The notes: generated from the sequence alone by a model not told the origin. DNA of 64,000 nt from a virus (UHGV-0200554), one strand, 5' to 3'; numbered from the stretch's first letter, positions 6,365 to 52,134 are shown. Numbers and translations: made by a program.

Positions 6365-6366
6365 TT

Positions 6367-6474
6367 ATGTTACTTGAAATGCTGATGAATCCGATTATTT
6401 CTATGGGCCTGATCTTTGTAGTTGTCTGCCTGGTTGTTGGTTTTATCTTGAGCAATATGCGGAAGTAAAAATTT
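6367..6474 (+). CDS. small hydrophobic peptide (35 aa)
   Basis: ATG 2 nt after upstream stop; hydrophobic core. Confidence 0.35.
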
Positions 6475-6495
6475 TTAAAAAGCTATGAAAAAGTG

Positions 6496-6523
6496 TTGAC
6501 ACGGCCCCCCGGTTTGGTATTCT
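6496..6523 (+). promoter_or_regulatory. Putative sigma70 promoter
   Basis: TTGACA, 16 bp spacer, TATTCT; followed by purine-rich leader. Confidence 0.5.
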
Positions 6524-6670
6524 ATAGCTGAAAGGAAAAGAAAGGGAACAAGAAGGAAAGTTCCGGGAGCGGGAAAAGAAGGGTAAGGGAAAAGCCTTGA
6601 AGCATAGCTAACCGAAGGACCGAGGGAGCCGGGAGCGGCCCTAAAAGATACTCAAAGAAGTAAAAAGAAG

Positions 6671-6698
6671 TTGACAAGGTAACACAAAGCAGTAAAAT
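6671..6698 (+). promoter_or_regulatory. sigma70 promoter
   Basis: TTGACA, 16 bp spacer, TAAAAT. Confidence 0.6.
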
Positions 6699-6777
6699 AA
6701 AGTTGAAAGGGAAGGATGCAGGGAGCAACAAGGACCGGATAAACCGGGGGGAGCTGAAAGAAAACGAGGAAAATAAA

Positions 6778-6864
6778 ATGAAAGACTACTACAAAGCAAA
6801 CGAATATGAAAGGGTAGCAGATTTCATTAAAGAAATGTTAAAAGGTCTGAATAATAAAAAATGA
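6778..6864 (+). CDS. small protein (28 aa)
   Basis: ATG after acgaggaaaataaa RBS; below ORF-track cutoff. Confidence 0.3.
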   Translation: MKDYYKANEYERVADFIKEMLKGLNNKK

Positions 6865-6872
6865 GGTGGGGT

Positions 6873-6986
6873 ATGAAAAACAAGCAAGAAAGGCCCGAAG
6901 ATGACAAATTTACATGGCGTGAGCTTTTAAACATCTGGTACATCATTTACGGGCAACATTATAAACACAGAGGAGGGAGGTTATAA
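6873..6986 (+). CDS. small protein (37 aa)
   Basis: ATG after gaggtgggg RBS; followed by GGAGGGAGG..CCTCCC hairpin. Confidence 0.3.
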   Translation: MKNKQERPEDDKFTWRELLNIWYIIYGQHYKHRGGRL

Positions 6987-7033
6987 ACCTCCCACCACAA
7001 AGAAAGAAACAACAACCAAGCGAGGAAAATAAA

Positions 7034-9439: not shown

Positions 9440-9706
9440 ATGAAAATGGTAGACGTTAAAGGCATCAAGAACGTTAAAATGCAAAAAAATACTCCCGCAA
9501 ACGTTCTTAAAAAAGCCCTGAGCATCCTAGAAGCACACAACGCAAAAACGGTGCATCCTGTTAAATTAAATTGCGGTTATGGCTATAAATACAATATTAA
9601 TAAAGACTGGAGGCTGTTAAACCGTGATGGCGAATTTAAAGATTGGTTAATTGTTGAGCACTTGGAGTATAATCGTCTGGTTGGCGTAAAAGGCGCTCAT
9701 AAATAA
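9440..9706 (+). CDS. hypothetical protein (88 aa)
   Basis: RBS aagaagagg upstream of ATG. Confidence 0.65.
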   Translation: MKMVDVKGIKNVKMQKNTPANVLKKALSILEAHNAKTVHPVKLNCGYGYKYNINKDWRLLNRDGEFKDWLIVEHLEYNRLVGVKGAHK

Positions 9707-10849: not shown

Positions 10850-11146
10850 ATGTTTATCCCTGCAAACGGTTTATTCTTCTTTGACGGTATGATCGACAAT
10901 GCCGCCGTAATGGTCGAGATTGCCAACAAAAACGGCGGCCAGGTGATGGCATTCCGTGATGACCATGACCATGATCGATGGTTAGAGGTCGAGATCCAAA
11001 AAGTGGACGAAAAAAGCTATCTAGTGATCTACCGCCTCTTTGAAGACGGTCGCCAGGAGGCAGGGGATCAGGCCATCTTCCCGCGCTACATGGTCCAGGG
11101 TGCGATCATCGCTTTCGTGAACGATGTTTTCCCTGTTGAAGAATAA
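10850..11146 (+). CDS. hypothetical protein (98 aa)
   Basis: RBS aaaggag; ATG at 10850 preferred over GTG at 10841. Confidence 0.6.
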   Translation: MFIPANGLFFFDGMIDNAAVMVEIANKNGGQVMAFRDDHDHDRWLEVEIQKVDEKSYLVIYRLFEDGRQEAGDQAIFPRYMVQGAIIAFVNDVFPVEE

Positions 11147-11216
11147 CCGACTATACTCGAAAGCTGAAAATCAAAAAATAGCCCATCTAATCGCCACACA
11201 GGCGGGATAAACCTGG

Positions 11217-11249
11217 GGAGGCCTTGCAAGTGCATAGCCTCCTTTTTCA
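11217..11249 (+). terminator. Intrinsic terminator
   Basis: GGAGGC..GCCTCC hairpin followed by TTTTT. Confidence 0.6.
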
Positions 11250-11353
11250 TGCCCTTAAAACGCTTCCTGTTGCGTTTCCTGCGATACGGTCCAGGCCGTG
11301 ACGGCGGTCCGGTCCGGTGTAGGGTGTTCAAATGTTGTAACTAAAAATAATCC

Positions 11354-11381
11354 TTGCACCGATTCACAAATAGGCTATAAT
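11354..11381 (+). promoter_or_regulatory. sigma70 promoter
   Basis: TTGCAC, 16 bp spacer, TATAAT. Confidence 0.6.
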
Positions 11382-11425
11382 AAAAATGAAAGAGGTAATT
11401 ACCTCACATAATAAGGGGCAAAATC

Positions 11426-11683
11426 ATGAAAGGCTGGATTAAAAAGGTGACCGAAAAACGTTTTAACGCCATTTGGGATCTTATTGAAAAGGAAGAAGGT
11501 GCCTCAAGCCGCTACCTCAATAATCTTGAATTTCATTACGTGGAAGCGATGAATGCAGAACATGACCACAAAGGCGGCGCGGATGATTTTGCAAAAAGGT
11601 ACGGTTTTAATAATGCCAACGAGATGATCGAGGCGGTTGTACTCCAGGCAGAAGAAGACTACGCAGAAAGGGCGCTTGGTTAA
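11426..11683 (+). CDS. hypothetical protein (85 aa)
   Basis: RBS aagggg upstream of ATG. Confidence 0.65.
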   Translation: MKGWIKKVTEKRFNAIWDLIEKEEGASSRYLNNLEFHYVEAMNAEHDHKGGADDFAKRYGFNNANEMIEAVVLQAEEDYAERALG

Positions 11684-11726
11684 TACACGGGCCGAAAGGC
11701 CCACCACACAAAGAGGAGTAAAAATT

Positions 11727-11921
11727 ATGGCACTTAAAAAATTAACTGAAAAAACTCGTTGGGATATGATCGACGGGGAAGTCTATATTTTCGCCCGTAA
11801 ACCTGGCGATCAAAAATGGGTAAAAGCGTTCACTTGTCACCCTGCTGTTATTGACCTCATTAAAAGTAAAGGCCTACGTGAAGCAGTGGCACGTAGTCTA
11901 TTAATCCCTTGCAAAGAATAA
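11727..11921 (+). CDS. hypothetical protein (64 aa)
   Basis: Track ORF 11637..11921 trimmed to ATG after aagaggag RBS. Confidence 0.6.
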   Translation: MALKKLTEKTRWDMIDGEVYIFARKPGDQKWVKAFTCHPAVIDLIKSKGLREAVARSLLIPCKE

Positions 11922-11943
11922 TATAACTGACGAAATAATAAGA

Positions 11944-11967
11944 GGCCGCAAATAAGCGGCCTTTTTG
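11944..11967 (+). terminator. Intrinsic terminator (end of rightward small-gene block)
   Basis: GGCCGC-aaataa-GCGGCC hairpin followed by TTTTTGTT; near-identical to 8425 terminator. Confidence 0.75.
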
Positions 11968-12469
11968 TTGTCTGTAGTATAGTGAATCCGGTATTCAAAA
12001 CAGCGGATCATTCCGCGAACGCTATGCGTGATGTGTGCATAAAATAAAATGCCTATAAATTAACCACACCACAAAAAAGCTGTATGTGCATACATAGTTT
12101 TTAAGTTTTTTCAGTTTTCAGCTGTCAAATGTGGGGCATTTTGTGAAGTATCTCACACTTTTCGGCTGATGCACATTTTATATAGCTATGTCAACAACTA
12201 TAAATCTTTATAAAACAGTAAGTTACAAAGTCCATTTTTTGAAAAATCGGGTATAACTATAGGCGCGAAATTCTATTTTTCACGTAGCGTCACGATAAGA
12301 TGTATCTGATAGGTATGTTTTAATTATGCAATATTAATGCATAACCAACATGTGATAAATATTCTCAACAACCCGGCAGATGTATTAAATATGGTGACTA
12401 TTCCACCCCACATTATTTCAGACGGCAACTATTCCGATGTGTGATTAATATACTTTCAGGCGGTGATTA

Positions 12470-12620
12470 TTCTGTATCTCAATAATCTATATAATATAAT
12501 ATTAGTAATATAATTAGATTATGAGATACAAGAAAACATCTAAAATAGTAAAATTACAATTAATGAAAATATATAAATTGCATAAAATAAAATAAGACAA
12601 ATAACAATTTGCGAATGCAA
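12470..12620. other. AT-rich tract (candidate DNA unwinding element)
   Basis: About 150 bp of almost pure A/T (aataatctatataatataatattagtaatataatt...). Confidence 0.4.
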
Positions 12621-13060
12621 TGATCACAATATGCAACGATAACATGGCGCGACCGGAGGGAGCGACATAATAACGCTGAGTGACAATAACACCCCCGTGT
12701 TATTATCCAGCATTATTATCTCGCTAATTTATGATTATCTCATAAATTAACATGTAATAATCCTCAGCGTTATTATGTCCTCCAATAACAATAAAAATTG
12801 TTATGGTAACGCTGAGTTATTACTATGTTAATAAAAGGGCATAAAGCCCGGTACTATGTACCATTAAATAATCTAAAACGATTACGTTTTCTCAGCGTTA
12901 TTGTGTCAAATGTTATGATAACAGTATATAATTATCTTGCTAACTTTCAGTATACATATTCCGCGTAGCGTCATGTGGAGCGTGTAGTAAACCTGTAGCA
13001 AGATAAGAATAACGCTGAGGTATTGTACCGTATGCAACGATAACATGGCGCAACTATAAC
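12621..13060. repeat. Dispersed direct and inverted repeats
   Basis: ATGCAACGATAACATGGCGC at 12631 and 13032; ATAACGCTGAG x3 and its complement x2; TTCCGCGTAGCGTCATG at 12957 and 13555. Confidence 0.6.
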
Positions 13061-13216
13061 AGGCCTAAAGAGTAAGATAAACAATAGTTTATGTGTATAA
13101 TCGGCGGGGCCTCCTGGCTGCGCTGTGTGAAACTATCATGTATGGAAACAGTCCAGGATGTTATGATTTCAGCATGGGATTGTGTGTTTTTGAATTGTGT
13201 ACGGGTAAACTGTGTG

Positions 13217-13270
13217 GGGTAAGTATAGGGGAAGTATAGGGGAAGTATAGGGGAAGTATAGGGGAAGTAT
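13217..13270. repeat. Tandem 11-bp iterons (AAGTATAGGGG x4 plus partial)
   Basis: Perfect 11-bp tandem units at 13221, 13232, 13243, 13254; period matches one helical turn. Confidence 0.7.
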
Positions 13271-13578
13271 GCCTAACAAATTTCGTTCTTTTTGTCAACA
13301 ATTTTTCTATGAAAGTGGTCCGACCAGTTATAAGATGCATCTACGGAGCATGTTATGTAGCTGGTATGGTAGTGTGCCAGTGCAATATGATGCCCGGTCA
13401 TAGCTTGTGTGGTGTACCTGTTACACCAGTAAATAGAATTAATAGCAGGCTAACTACTACAATGATTAATCTTTTAGTGCTGTAATAAACCGCAATTATT
13501 CTCCTTTCGATTGTTTTCGTTTCCTTTCGTTTCTTATCGTTTGAGCTGTGTTTTATTCCGCGTAGCGTCATGCTGAGC

Positions 13579-13618
13579 TGTGGATAAGTCTGTGGATAAC
13601 CCTGCCTCCTGTGGATAA
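13579..13618. promoter_or_regulatory. Three tandem DnaA boxes (TGTGGATAA, complement of TTATCCACA)
   Basis: Exact 9-mer consensus at 13579-13587, 13591-13599, 13610-13618, same orientation. Confidence 0.65.
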
Positions 13619-13830
13619 CTGGCCTGCTATGCCTGCTGTGTGGTACTATTGAACTACTGTACAAATGATCATAAGTGCGTATAATCGGTGTTACGTATGA
13701 TGAACAATACGAAGTAATAATTATTCCCACATGAGAAGGCTTATCATTTACTTAAATGTTGCTGTGGAAAACTGTAACGCATGTTATTATTCAACCCCAC
13801 ACAATGAGGGCGTGAACAGTCCCCCCCTAT

Positions 13831-13868
13831 AATCACTGTGTGCAACTATTAATCACTGTGAGTAACTA
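13831..13868. repeat. Iteron cluster B (AATCACTGTG..AACTA x2)
   Basis: Two copies related to iteron cluster A at 300-500. Confidence 0.45.
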
Positions 13869-14419
13869 CCATGCAATAACTAGGCCAATGGTCGCAAGGC
13901 CCCGGCTATCAATTGCGTAAACAGCCTCGATATTTGAGAATCATTCGCATTATGAGAAGGAGTCGCGTTTCGCCTGCCTAATACCTCAGATGTGAGTCTG
14001 GGTGTATCGGCCCCGCACTACCCCTGCTTCAGGACAGGACCTGCGGTCCGGTGACAACAACTTGTTGTGCACCATTGAGGATATTTGCCCCGGTTTGTAT
14101 GAATACCTCTTCAGGCTGTGTACCTCCCCGTAGGGGGGGTATGGTGAGAGGTAGTACGAATAAAAAAAAAATGAAGCCCTCTTCAGGCCTGTGATATTTG
14201 TGTGGCTGATATTTGTGGGGAATCCAGTATTTACGGGACTCCTGGACAGGGCGGGGAGGTATACACAAAGGAGGTATTATGTTAAAGATATGTTAAAATA
14301 TGTGGTGCTCTTTAGGCATTATTCTTCAATGAAATCAAGTGCTTAGGCTATGTGTGGGTATTTTCTGTGAATAATTGGCATGTTAATCGGATCAAAGAGG
14401 ATTAAAGAAGGGAAATGAT

Positions 14420-14448
14420 TTGACTCTTCATGCCACTTGTGGTATATT
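14420..14448 (+). promoter_or_regulatory. Putative sigma70 promoter
   Basis: TTGACT, 17 bp spacer, TATATT. Confidence 0.5.
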
Positions 14449-14481
14449 TTCGATACTGGTAAAGGGGGTTCGGAGGTCAGG

Positions 14482-14856
14482 ATGTTTGAGTTCAAAGCTG
14501 ATGCTCAGGAGTTCTACAACAAAGTTGCTAAGCCTGTTGTGGAGTCTGTTCAGGAACACCCTGCAAGCAGACCTACTTCTGTGGGGATAAAAGGTGTTAG
14601 CAAGTACTACAGAGGTAAACATGTGTATTACAGGGCTTACATCTGGGTAACACGCCACACTGTGAACAAGCAGTTGATCAAAACGTTTAAAACTCTGGAA
14701 GAAGCTGTAGCTCAAAGGCAGGAATGGGAACAGGTGAAGGATATTTTGGACGGGAAAGTAGCGATGGTATTACCTTTTGAATGGGATATGGTGTATGCTT
14801 CTAAATACTGGGAAGTTTATCATGGAATGGCTCAGGAGCAGGATGAAGATTATTAA
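14482..14856 (+). CDS. AP2-domain DNA-binding protein (124 aa)
   Basis: ATG after ggaggtcagg RBS; AP2-like segment GVSKYYRGKHVYYRAYIWV..FKTLEEAVAQRQEW. Confidence 0.6.
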   Translation: MFEFKADAQEFYNKVAKPVVESVQEHPASRPTSVGIKGVSKYYRGKHVYYRAYIWVTRHTVNKQLIKTFKTLEEAVAQRQEWEQVKDILDGKVAMVLPFEWDMVYASKYWEVYHGMAQEQDEDY

Positions 14857-15324
14857 TGGACCGTGAAGGTCCGGCATGTAATGCCAGTTTATGGAATGTA
14901 ATTTGTAGGCATGGAAGCTATTATTTTGCTTAGCTCTGTAATGATTAGCAGGCTGTGTGCTACAACCTTGTTGTACCTGAATCCTTAGGTTTCTAATGAT
15001 TAGTTTGCTAAGTATTTATATGTGCCTAACCCCCTACCCCCGGTTCTAGTCTCCCCAACAACGCTGGTACTTAAACTCTACCGTTATTGTGCCTTACTGC
15101 CCATATTACATCGCAGTTGGCTGGTCACTATAACCGCTCCCGCTCTCCAACCTCGACAAGCTCGTGCGATACTCCATTCATTCGGATGTTCACGCTGTTC
15201 ACTCAGTCGATATTCCCCTATCTCCTTCAATCCGAAGAGAGAGAAACCCAGAATCGTATTCTGGAAAAGAGAGAGAAGATCTAAATTATAGCAGGAGATG
15301 AGAGGAATTGCAATATGGAGGATA

Positions 15325-15342
15325 CCTACCAGAATTGGTAGG
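15325..15342. terminator. Putative bidirectional terminator hairpin between convergent units
   Basis: CCTACCA-gaat-TGGTAGG perfect 7-bp stem; flanking tracts only weakly U-rich. Confidence 0.3.
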
Positions 15343-15371
15343 CATATGTGGACAGCACTTATTGACAAAAA

Positions 15372-15599
15372 CTACTCCGTATCGATATCTACCTCTGTGC
15401 CTTCCTCAGGTACAGATAACATAGCCATCTGTAGAGCTTCCTCCCAGTTAGTGCGCTCAGCCTGAGCCACCAACTCATCCGGGTCTTTACCCAATGCTTC
15501 AGCTAACCGAGATACATAGAGTACACCAGGGAGAAGTTCAGGATCAAATTCAAGATAGAGAATCCCATCCCCATCTTCTGTGAAAAGCTCAAGTCGCAT
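15372..15599 (-). CDS. hypothetical acidic protein (75 aa); last gene of leftward block
   Basis: ORF from track, acidic composition. Confidence 0.45.
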   Translation of the reverse strand: MRLELFTEDGDGILYLEFDPELLPGVLYVSRLAEALGKDPDELVAQAERTNWEEALQMAMLSVPEEGTEVDIDTE

Positions 15600-15854
15600 A
15601 CTGGCTCCTTATGTTGACTTCATACAGGTTGTACGATGCCTAAAGAGTGAAATTACTTTGTCTCTTCAGGCAACAGAGCTTGCGATTGTTGTGGATGTGT
15701 GGGCAGAGAAGCTACATAGTAGTGAATAGCTCCACGACATACTACAACAGTATGCATATCATTGTGACCGCTCCAGCTACACACAATATAGCACTTATGA
15801 TTGCTAATGAGAACAGGCAGTAGCTGATAGCTGTGTCTGTAATATCACTTACCC

Positions 15855-16016
15855 TCATACGCTTCTCCTTGTTGCTCTTGCTACTTCAAAATAGTCTACA
15901 TATCTTGATTCTTGCAGGATACGATAGCCTTCCCTATCTGCGTCTTCGATTGTGTGGAAGCGATCTCCAAGCTCCATACGCTCACCAGATTGTAAAACAA
16001 TTATCAGCTTGTACAT
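15855..16016 (-). CDS. hypothetical protein (53 aa)
   Basis: Track ORF trimmed to ATG after gaaggaggg RBS. Confidence 0.4.
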   Translation of the reverse strand: MYKLIIVLQSGERMELGDRFHTIEDADREGYRILQESRYVDYFEVARATRRSV

Positions 16017-19551: not shown

Positions 19552-19576
19552 TAGAAGGTCCTCTTTTTGGGTAGAA

Positions 19577-19654
19577 TTAATAGCCGTAGCCTAAGAAGTT
19601 AACAACAGCTATCAGGAAAATCATAACTAACAGACAAGCTATCTCTAAACGCAT
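19577..19654 (-). CDS. small hydrophobic peptide (25 aa)
   Basis: Short ORF with hydrophobic core; weak RBS. Confidence 0.25.
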   Translation of the reverse strand: MRLEIACLLVMIFLIAVVNFLGYGY

Positions 19655-19677
19655 TACATGTTCTCTTTAGTTGGTAG

Positions 19678-19791
19678 TTATTTCTCTTGTTTGTAGTGTT
19701 CACGGAGGAGCTGGATTACAAAGTCCAGCCCTCCGATGATACCACAGACAAGGAAAGTATAGATGAGAAACATTAAAATCATGTCGTACAT
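19678..19791 (-). CDS. small hydrophobic membrane peptide (37 aa)
   Basis: ATG ORF with TM (ILMFLIYTFLVCGIIGG). Confidence 0.3.
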   Translation of the reverse strand: MYDMILMFLIYTFLVCGIIGGLDFVIQLLREHYKQEK

Positions 19792-19917
19792 ACTACACCA
19801 CCTTGCTGCTAGTGTCAAGTGCTTATTTGGAAAATAGGTGAATTATTTTTTACCTTTCCCGCCTTTGCCTTTGCCACCTTTTTTGCCACATGCCATACAC
19901 AATCTCCAGTTAGTTAA

Positions 19918-20178
19918 TTAAAAGTGGCCTTGCGCTAGTTTAATGAGCGCATCTGCCATTTGACGAACCGCTTTGGCGTGTTCCAAAGGCGAAAGTCCGT
20001 CTTCAGGATCGAAGCGTAATGCTTCCATTACTGCTTTCAGTTCACCATCTTCCGCATGGATTTCACCACGTACCGGAAGTGCCCCAGGACACGATTGGTC
20101 CATACTTTCTTCAACGTAATCAACACCAGCGATAAGACCAAATGCACCGTTGTTGTCGATAACAAGTTCTTGTTTCAT
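19918..20178 (-). CDS. hypothetical protein (86 aa)
   Basis: Track ORF trimmed to ATG after agaggg RBS. Confidence 0.5.
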   Translation of the reverse strand: MKQELVIDNNGAFGLIAGVDYVEESMDQSCPGALPVRGEIHAEDGELKAVMEALRFDPEDGLSPLEHAKAVRQMADALIKLAQGHF

Positions 20179-52058: not shown

Positions 52059-52134
52059 GCCCCGTTAGTTCAAATGGAAGAACAGTGGCCTTCTAAGCCA
52101 TAGGTTACAGGTTCGAGTCCTGTACGGGGTGCCA
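52059..52134 (+). tRNA. tRNA-Arg (anticodon UCU)
   Basis: Hand-folded cloverleaf: 7-bp acceptor, GTTC/GAAC D-stem, anticodon loop CTTCTAA, T-loop TTCGAGT, encoded CCA. Confidence 0.85.

Follow-up and report, generated by a model that had tools for sequence, protein, structure and literature searches.

The rV5 paper shows a grey 'non-coding' box between genes 163 and 164 (Kropinski et al. 2013, PMC3606486), and skew analysis failed to define an origin in that phage, the changes in skew coinciding with changes in transcription direction (PMC3606486), which phage skew mostly follows (PMC3606486). Many candidate therapeutic phages belong to the rV5 group, in which no origin has so far been mapped, and the literature yielded nothing relevant on transcript maps of Vequintavirus or on the mapping of an origin; the genomes of Vequintavirus and Certrevirus have been reported as circularly permuted (PMC3606486, PMC7344957, PMC8407724). 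For T5-like phages, Davison described paired DnaA boxes 3 bp apart in a complex untranslated terminal-repeat region, and proposed that this region is an injection stop (10.1101/866236). Here we analyse a gene-free region of about 2.5 kb (positions 11970-14481) in a 64,000-nucleotide stretch of viral DNA (UHGV-0200554); "the window" is the whole of this 64-kb stretch, and all coordinates are window positions.

Our analysis indicates that the region most likely works as DNA, and not as a gene or a structured RNA. We tentatively read it as a DNA-level region for the initiation or control of replication that was inherited across the rV5 group, and to which two or three DnaA boxes, now under selection, were added in one sublineage; it is the best candidate for the origin of this group. 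A previous examination of the same DNA from its letters alone (the sequence-only reading) had proposed an iteron/DnaA-dependent origin and had pointed to a resemblance to the T5 pause region.

The gap and its counterpart in rV5-type phages

Positions 11000-16000 (the 5 kb compared) match ENA entry ERZ28630675 (PASO19-1 scaffold_9, 139,560 bp, from a metagenome) at 100%; NCBI nr labels the matching scaffold "Caudoviricetes MAG". By sequence comparison the window genome is a diverged relative of Vequintavirus (rV5, FV3, Murica), with 75% identity to Vequintavirus in the NrdD protein and merely 72-76% identity in the DNA of conserved genes; a megablast search of the GenBank phage collection with the region returned no close relative. 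Sensitive blastn matches two pieces of the region to a gene-free gap of ~2.5 kb in 98 rV5-type genomes, and Murica and FV3 have the same layout, gene-free over more than 2 kb between converging small-gene blocks. On this homology the region is the counterpart of the rV5 'non-coding' box, a known feature of the group.

The window and the rV5-type phages (rV5, FV3, Murica, magaca) share the position of the gap between converging small-gene blocks, with 72-84% identity within blocks, and also the order of its elements: block A, an AT tract, box X on either side of a cassette, tandem arrays, and the right-hand blocks. Colinear blocks lie at 12166-12296, 13905-13979 (within block S1), 14171-14267 and 15181-15296, and box X and the cassette are shared too. 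The rV5-type phages differ in having neither the ~300 bp that hold the DnaA boxes and a T-rich tract nor the gene at 14482-14856, and in carrying other cassette arms and array units. A conserved neighbouring gene, used as marker, led to no equivalent gap in Seunavirus, Mydovirus or phi92-like phages, where this gene does not adjoin a gap.

For footprinting we gathered about 12 genomes of the window's own lineage, which across the gap are typically 80-97% identical. They came from IMG/VR, queried with a conserved neighbouring protein; from one metagenome contig (L064), the one true relative in a 16-mer metagenome scan that otherwise returned chiefly chance matches; and from contigs that encode homologues of the 124-amino-acid neighbour.

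No open reading frame (ORF) is conserved in 11970-14481. Those within 11970-14160 are broken in relatives, none being intact throughout, and the gene calls of the source assemblies place nothing between 11921 and 14482. The variable columns of the conserved blocks lack 3-base periodicity (p=0.19-0.85), while the same test on the flanking genes gives p=3e-7 to 2e-10 for three of the five, and p=0.03 and p=0.44 for the other two. Missed coding genes are ruled out by the broken ORFs in relatives together with the absence of codon periodicity, and the claim of the sequence-only reading that 2.4 kb hold no convincing ORF is therefore sound. Its right-hand limit needs revision: it had let the gap end at the leftward block, and although the gap itself is gene-free, a rightward gene (14482-14856) intervenes, so that the leftward block begins only at 15372, past this gene and a further 515 bp without genes.

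DnaA boxes and conserved blocks

The elements that carry our reading are the following; no strand is assigned where none is given.

13579-13587, 13591-13599 and 13610-13618, plus strand: three TGTGGATAA DnaA boxes in direct orientation, separated by gaps of 3 bp and 10 bp
13502-13542, plus strand: T-rich, pyrimidine-rich tract with 10-bp periodicity (TTTCG repeats)
12166-12300: block A, the most conserved piece, containing TGTCAACAACTATAAATCTTTATAA, AAAAATCGGGTATAACTATAGG and CACGTAGCGTCAC
12466-12615: AT-rich tract, 84% AT
13277-13345: block B (…TTTTTGTCAAC…GTGGTCCGACCAGTTATAAGATGCAT), conserved and non-coding
13640-14010: block S1, ~370 bp, almost indel-free and non-coding, with a weak box TGTGGAAAA at 13763
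14085-14425: right-hand conserved block, with GC-rich hairpins at 14120-14150 and an A10 run

The three boxes, which the sequence-only reading had placed correctly at 13579-13618, are the sole exact matches to TGTGGATAA in the 64-kb window. With one mismatch allowed, the window has 33 sites, as compared with 18.7 +/- 4.4 in shuffled sequence (none of 100 shuffles reaches 33), and 7 of the window's 12 TTWTNCACA-type boxes lie inside the gap, all in the same orientation. Boxes 2 and 3 are unchanged across all 14 related loci, and box 1 is perfect in 8 and a variant with 1 or 2 mismatches in the other 6; the 3-bp gap between boxes 1 and 2 is constant in 14/14 loci and the 10-bp gap in 13/14. In a five-genome alignment, 2 of 27 box columns are variable, versus 9 of 13 columns in the spacers (p=1.1e-4) and 46 of 63 in spacers plus flanks (p=4.6e-9). 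Since the boxes are intact in L009 and L185, where the sequence upstream of them is non-homologous, selection acts on the boxes themselves; on these alignments they are a phylogenetic footprint under selection. The T-rich tract, which is only 66% AT, lies directly 5' of box 1 in most relatives, and it lies, as do the three boxes, in the ~300 bp by which the window lineage exceeds the rV5 type.

As a yardstick for the remaining segments we used the neighbouring genes, where 53% of columns vary at the third codon position and 16% at the first two; the conserved segments of the gap, with 12-37%, all stay below the third-position value. Block A has 16 variable columns out of 135 (12%) and no indels in 6 genomes, and the corresponding sequence of Murica and other rV5-type phages matches it at 72% identity. 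The AT tract is conserved in sequence beyond its composition (23% variable columns, length 149-151 in 6 genomes), and Murica has an AT-rich tract in the same relative position. It is the most AT-rich 150 bp of the window (mean 56.8%, standard deviation 5.0, next best 73%, z ~5.4), by a wide margin, although at 84% AT it falls short of the "nearly pure" tract of the sequence-only reading; it may serve to unwind the DNA or as a platform for protein binding. Block B (26% variable columns in 13 genomes, 2 gap columns, codon periodicity absent) is partly recognisable in Murica and FV3. Block S1 keeps a length of 369-371 in 13 genomes with a mean pairwise identity of 88%, and its 37% variable columns are fewer than at third codon positions (p=1.7e-5), with a codon-periodicity p of 0.28; it includes a 20-bp tandem, TAATCACTGTG.G.AACTA, at 13830-13868. 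In the right-hand block, 14160-14425 has 29% variable columns, 2 gap columns and no codon periodicity; the repeats of the block as a whole (14085-14425) comprise two copies of CCTCTTCAGGC, two of TGATATTTGTG.GG and an 11-nt unit, TATGTTAAAGA, in 2.5 copies.

Of four motifs that were tested, three occur in the gap alone: the two from block A, which have no occurrence in the window outside it, and AACGCTGAG; the fourth, CCTCTTCAGGC, is confined in its exact form only. Within the gap, CACGTAGCGTCAC recurs as two copies with 2 mismatches. Such single-copy confinement is as expected of one cis-acting site such as an origin, and most of the region behaves, as far as its sequence tells, as a single-copy element acting at the DNA level.

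Two further observations concern these blocks. A T7-like promoter in block A (…ACTATAGG), a motif unique in the window, was considered and dropped; the rV5 paper reports no phage RNA polymerase, its one remark on the subject being that the T4 late-transcription factors are missing from rV5 (PMC3606486). At 14268-14303 a conserved mini-ORF of 5 codons, MLK(I/R)C plus stop, follows a strong Shine-Dalgarno sequence, AAAGGAGGT; it overlaps the 11-nt TATGTTAAAGA repeat and may be either a leader peptide or a chance product of the repeat.

Repeats, edges and neighbours

Between the AT tract and block B lie the following repeats.

12630-12653, plus strand: box X copy 1, TATGCAACGATAACATGGCGCGAC, one arm of a 24-bp direct repeat
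13031-13054, plus strand: box X copy 2
12654-13030: inverted-repeat cassette between the box X copies
13122-13213, plus strand: degenerate GTRAAC(A/T)RT iterons, GTGAAACTAT, TGGAAACAGT and GGTAAACTGT
13217-13276, plus strand: 11-bp tandem array of four perfect AAGTATAGGGG and one variant AAGTATGCCTA

Box X is invariant in relatives, with an identical T-to-C change in both copies of L008; its Murica counterpart, ATGCAAACGAATGGCATGGC, is likewise present twice, and across the window and Murica the direct repeat measures 20-24 bp. Two pairs of arms occur in the cassette, one perfect over 17 nt (12664-12680 with 12763-12779) and another at 12791-12816 with 12891-12916; the cassette also holds five copies of AACGCTGAG in alternating orientation (12672, 12763, 12808, 12891, 13011). 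In the same place Murica carries an 18-nt perfect inverted repeat with different arm sequences, so that the two lineages have different arms, which nevertheless pair without a mismatch in each (17 and 18 nt). A few cassette stems covary between lineages; an inner hairpin with a CCCC loop does so between the window and Murica lineages. Box X and the first inverted repeat together have 14% variable columns, with one 47-bp insert, in L008 only. The dispersed direct and inverted repeats of the sequence-only reading are all the more evident with this inventory, as many more exist than it had listed, including the five AACGCTGAG copies, the 24-bp box X repeat and a 19-bp repeat in 2-3 copies. In L184 (~165-200, window ~12780-12805) an (AGT)9-10 microsatellite replaces part of the cassette, a further sign of a slippage-prone region.

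Relatives carry the GTRAAC(A/T)RT units as arrays with a period of 15-16 bp. An array with the GTRAAC core stands just past box X copy 2, in the same orientation, in L008, L010, Murica, FV3, L006 and magaca; found in all lineages examined and constant in orientation, it is shared more widely than the 11-bp array. The latter is resolved by TRF as 13217-13270, period 11, 4.9 copies and 97% matches, in line with the four to five repeats claimed for it. At its position relatives have 2-6 or more copies of (A/G)AGTATGCCTA, and rV5-type phages have other units; what is conserved is the position and the 11-bp phasing, while the units differ in sequence and in number, and several assemblies break there. 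Helically phased tandem arrays are thus present at a conserved position in every lineage examined.

Separately, a double-hairpin mini-element of ~50 nt (GGGGTGGAC…GTCCACC, then CTGGCRTAGCCAG, then YGAAAG) occurs at gap positions that vary by phage: L008 (reverse complement 220-275), L010 (reverse complement 1, 47, 999 and 2483), L002 4608-4662 and L006 1150-1205. It is absent from the window. Its first stem shows compensatory changes (GGTGGAC/GTCCACC, GGTGACC/GGTCACC, GGTGGC/GCCACC), and in its sequence it resembles a small element, mobile or structured, with the gap as its target.

The edges and the immediate neighbourhood are made up as follows.

11940-11965: bidirectional intrinsic terminator that closes the rightward small-gene block at the left edge of the gap (terminator scan, both strands)
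14420-14448, plus strand: sigma-70-like promoter (TTGACT, 17-nt spacer, TG-extended TATATT), reading rightward out of the region
14482-14856, plus strand: small gene of 124 amino acids
14857-15371: second gene-free stretch, with no gene called there in any relative

The sequence of the left terminator is kept in L009. The promoter has 10 of 12 matches with the TG extension in a promoter scan and is near-invariant in four aligned genomes. The 124-amino-acid protein has 33 homologues (P0001-P0033), all in relatives of this phage; its N- and C-terminal domains are more than 90% identical, and the linker is highly variable and consists of tandem peptide repeats (VGIKGVS…, ALPHGRA…), the aligned homologues being 124-168 amino acids long. 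Sequence and profile searches of Pfam and PDB were empty, PHROG gave weak matches to the DNA-binding part of an HNH endonuclease (E=6e-5), and the AlphaFold model is poor (mean pLDDT 45). The protein has a beta-beta-beta-alpha core, possibly AP2-like and DNA-binding, and is a weak candidate for a factor acting on the region.

In the second gene-free stretch, 14990-15370 has a mean pairwise identity of 90% in 13 genomes and no codon periodicity. Terminator-like hairpins of the leftward block lie at ~15340-15315 and 15265-15247 (terminator scan, RNA fold). The stretch follows these two hairpins and may be a 3' untranslated region or a small RNA (fold z=-1.96). Elsewhere, two more gaps without an ORF of at least 45 amino acids occur at 6365-7033 (669 bp) and 19552-20055 (504 bp); an 88-amino-acid gene of the rightward block (9440-9706) is ParE_like (PF24732), a toxin-type domain, in the source's precomputed annotation; and L186-L188 have an IS605 OrfB/TnpB (Cas12f-like) gene in the leftward block, ~5.3 kb right of the 124-amino-acid gene (L186 11711-12417), with none at the matching place in the window.

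Readings of the region and known systems

From the observed conservation, non-coding status, single-copy motifs and architecture we infer the following functional steps for a replication-control region. Phage or host proteins would bind block A, box X and both kinds of array (GTRAAC-type and 11-bp); the two or three perfect boxes, on which selection is seen, would be bound by host DnaA in this sublineage. By analogy with the published oriC sequence, DnaA could then extend onto the adjoining T-rich tract. The duplex would open at that tract or at the 84%-AT tract, a phage T7-gp4-like primase-helicase would be loaded, and later rounds might proceed via recombination or concatemer replication. 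Such a primase-helicase is encoded by rV5 (PMC3606486). DnaA would have an accessory role, since the region is retained in rV5-type phages that have no DnaA box. The iteron/DnaA origin proposed by the sequence-only reading is partly supported, by the non-coding status, the purifying selection, the box footprint, the AT tract and arrays at conserved positions and the confinement of motifs, whereas the iteron units are not conserved, no Rep gene is adjacent and the boxes are ~1 kb from the AT tract.

A number of points weigh against an origin. The gaps of rV5, FV3 and Murica-type phages have no perfect DnaA box, though the rest of the region is shared. The T-rich tract is present in 12 of 14 loci, with unrelated sequence instead in L009 and L185. 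FV3 has one box X and no cassette; the cassette is therefore dispensable, since this is a viable phage. The perfect AAGTATAGGGG repeats are specific to this genome and are, by comparison with relatives, a recent expansion of a variable array, so that as a conserved element the "iterons" of the sequence-only reading fall away. The parts are spread over ~1.1 kb, with the boxes ~1 kb from the main AT tract and the arrays 500 bp from it. GATC is depleted in the gap (1.7/kb vs 4.6/kb in the whole window), and Pfam and PHROGs give no Rep- or initiator-type match among the flanking genes. Cumulative GC skew, the check that the sequence-only reading had suggested, goes the wrong way: its maximum, ~15 kb, falls at the converging transcription of this region and its minimum, ~50 kb, at diverging genes, which is the polarity of a terminus and not of an origin; as phage skew mostly follows gene direction, this is weak evidence. 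Bidirectional forks would meet transcription head-on, because the genes on both sides read towards the region. Box pairs much like these occur in a region of T5 that is thought not to be an origin (10.1101/866236).

The chief rival, which we consider unlikely, is that the boxes recruit DnaA for a purpose other than initiation (titration that blocks host initiation, a tether to membrane-bound DnaA, or a DnaA-dependent roadblock or regulator) and that the rest of the region serves other cis functions. The boxes do behave as an add-on, being selected and yet absent from sister phages with the same region, and clusters like them recur widely. Exact-pattern scans of IMG/VR for three perfect boxes at these spacings returned 35 and 17 contigs, which, three relatives apart, are unrelated to the window and mostly to one another, with a GC content of 29-66%. 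These ~50 contigs (L011-L061) hold same-direction arrays of 3-13 perfect TGTGGATAA boxes, mostly intergenic and often in 3-bp pairs; the most boxes per locus is 14 (L027), and L031, L035 and L044 are other examples. Their neighbours are mixed and not mainly replication genes, helicase, Erf-like protein, terminase, methyltransferase and exonuclease being among them. Around the arrays of 38 unrelated contigs, AT exceeds background by 4% on the 5' side and 2% on the 3' side, a side difference that is not significant (p=0.11). GenBank matches to the box cluster include gokushoviruses, Vibrio, Lactococcus and Streptomyces phages and many T5-like phages, and 3-bp box pairs also occur in T5-like terminal repeats, whose role as an origin is doubted (10.1101/866236). 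Since box clusters recur across unrelated phages, clusters alone do not indicate an origin.

In its fullest form, and held with the same low confidence, the capture reading makes the 3-bp-spaced perfect pairs and arrays a portable host-DnaA-capture module, acquired independently by unrelated lytic phages: T5-like siphoviruses, this rV5-like sublineage, gokushoviruses and the ~50 IMG/VR contigs. The module would hijack or disable the host initiator through tethering, titration or timing instead of building a conventional origin, and in this phage it would have been put into an older cis-acting control region of the rV5 group. Against DnaA capture in general, 2-3 boxes per genome are a small DnaA sink, and the boxes sit in an otherwise origin-like region, oriented relative to the T-rich tract as in oriC; sequence alone does not separate capture from a role at an origin.

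Rather less probable is a transcription end zone between converging units, with regulatory RNAs or attenuator-like leaders and with the inverted repeats acting as RNA hairpins. Terminators do stand at both edges (11940-11965 and, on the minus strand, 15265-15247), the repeats in alternating orientation can form mutually exclusive hairpins, stems covary between lineages, and the Murica annotators marked a terminator within the cassette of that phage. The only clear consensus-structure signal, at 14085-14275 (z=-3.8 on the plus strand, -3.1 on the minus strand), comes mostly from hairpins; GC-rich hairpins and inserted hairpin elements lie there. By contrast, 13640-14010 and 14260-14425 give z values of -2.0 to +0.7 against column shuffles, by which a structured RNA is ruled out there; an Rfam search of the region returned no credible match, only sub-threshold chance scores, and a tRNA search of the region none, the window's sole tRNA lying at 52059. 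Promoter-like sites are not in excess (16 vs 13.9 +/- 3.6 shuffled), and the best internal candidate (13658-13685) has a -10 that is not conserved. Termination needs less than 2.5 kb, and it leaves the conserved DnaA boxes unexplained.

A packaging start (pac), or another site of genome processing or recombination, is doubtful. The region is single-copy, repeat-rich and probably bent, much like the pac sites known from P1 and SPP1; FV3 lacks the segment enclosed by the box X direct repeats; and seven independent assemblies end within it, at ~12509 (L008), ~12950 (L010), ~14133 (L183), ~12616 (L184), ~13266 (L185) and ~13255 (L190) and within the array region 13217-13276 (L194). The ends, among which a position of ~13133 is also listed, are scattered and mostly in repeats (the 11-bp array, box X, the multi-copy hairpin element, a G7 run), as fits assembly breaks, and for that reason we rejected them as physical genome ends and read them as artefacts; the seven breaks probably reflect repeats or strain differences. 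Headful packaging of pac type has been inferred for one Vequintavirus (PMC13211470), whereas relatives showed no preferred ends by BAL-31 digestion or in PhageTerm (PMC7344957, PMC8407724), and the terminase genes are not adjacent.

We give very little credence to the absence of function, with the gap as a tolerated dump for small mobile elements and slippage-prone repeats: shifting hairpin mini-elements, the (AGT)n microsatellite, array copy number and the loss of the FV3 cassette make it highly variable in places, but third codon positions are significantly less conserved than the boxes and blocks A, B, S1 and S2, and two blocks are near indel-free, across 6 and 13 genomes respectively. Least probable of all is a T5-type injection stop, in which entering DNA would pause on membrane-bound DnaA, for while the region is long, repeat-rich and untranslated with a 3-bp box pair in 14/14 loci, as in 25 T5-like phages (10.1101/866236), and blastn with the box cluster matched mostly T5-like terminal repeats, such a stop needs a fixed end at a fixed distance and the relatives are reported to be circularly permuted, rV5-type phages lack the boxes, and the sequence similarity to T5 goes no further than the boxes themselves, which lie in no large inverted repeat (none of the 25 pairs listed, out of 28 found, spans 13579-13618).

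On the reading that we prefer, a replication-control region, an anonymous box in the rV5 group now becomes a set of testable elements: two invariant DnaA boxes, a 135-bp block that is 88% invariant, a sequence-conserved AT tract and phased arrays. Should host DnaA be required, both host range and the timing of infection would hinge on how the host is replicating, and the boxes would offer an easy target to anyone wishing to engineer or attenuate the phage. The recurrence of identical box pairs suggests, more generally, a little-studied use of the host initiator by phages.

The region resembles several known systems in part. With that of T5 it has in common a kb-scale untranslated sequence crowded with direct, inverted and tandem repeats, consensus DnaA boxes paired 3 bp apart, and conservation despite diverging flanking genes; the T5 region differs in that it lies within a terminal repeat of a genome with fixed ends, and in that its eight boxes lie inside large inverted repeats (IRC/IRD). 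DnaA-assisted iteron origins of plasmids and P1 (P1 oriR, RK2 oriV, pSC101, F oriS) likewise bring together clustered DnaA boxes that all point the same way, tandem repeats and an AT-rich stretch; they span 250-400 bp, as opposed to ~1.1 kb here, where no Rep gene is adjacent and the array units, of 11 and 15-16 bp, are not conserved in sequence. From E. coli oriC the region differs in having no 13-mers, no GATC cluster, no opposite R4-type box and a reversed GC-skew polarity. In the left half of oriC the unwinding element is followed by box R1, and in the region described here a T-rich upper strand stands in the same way directly 5' of TGTGGATAA.

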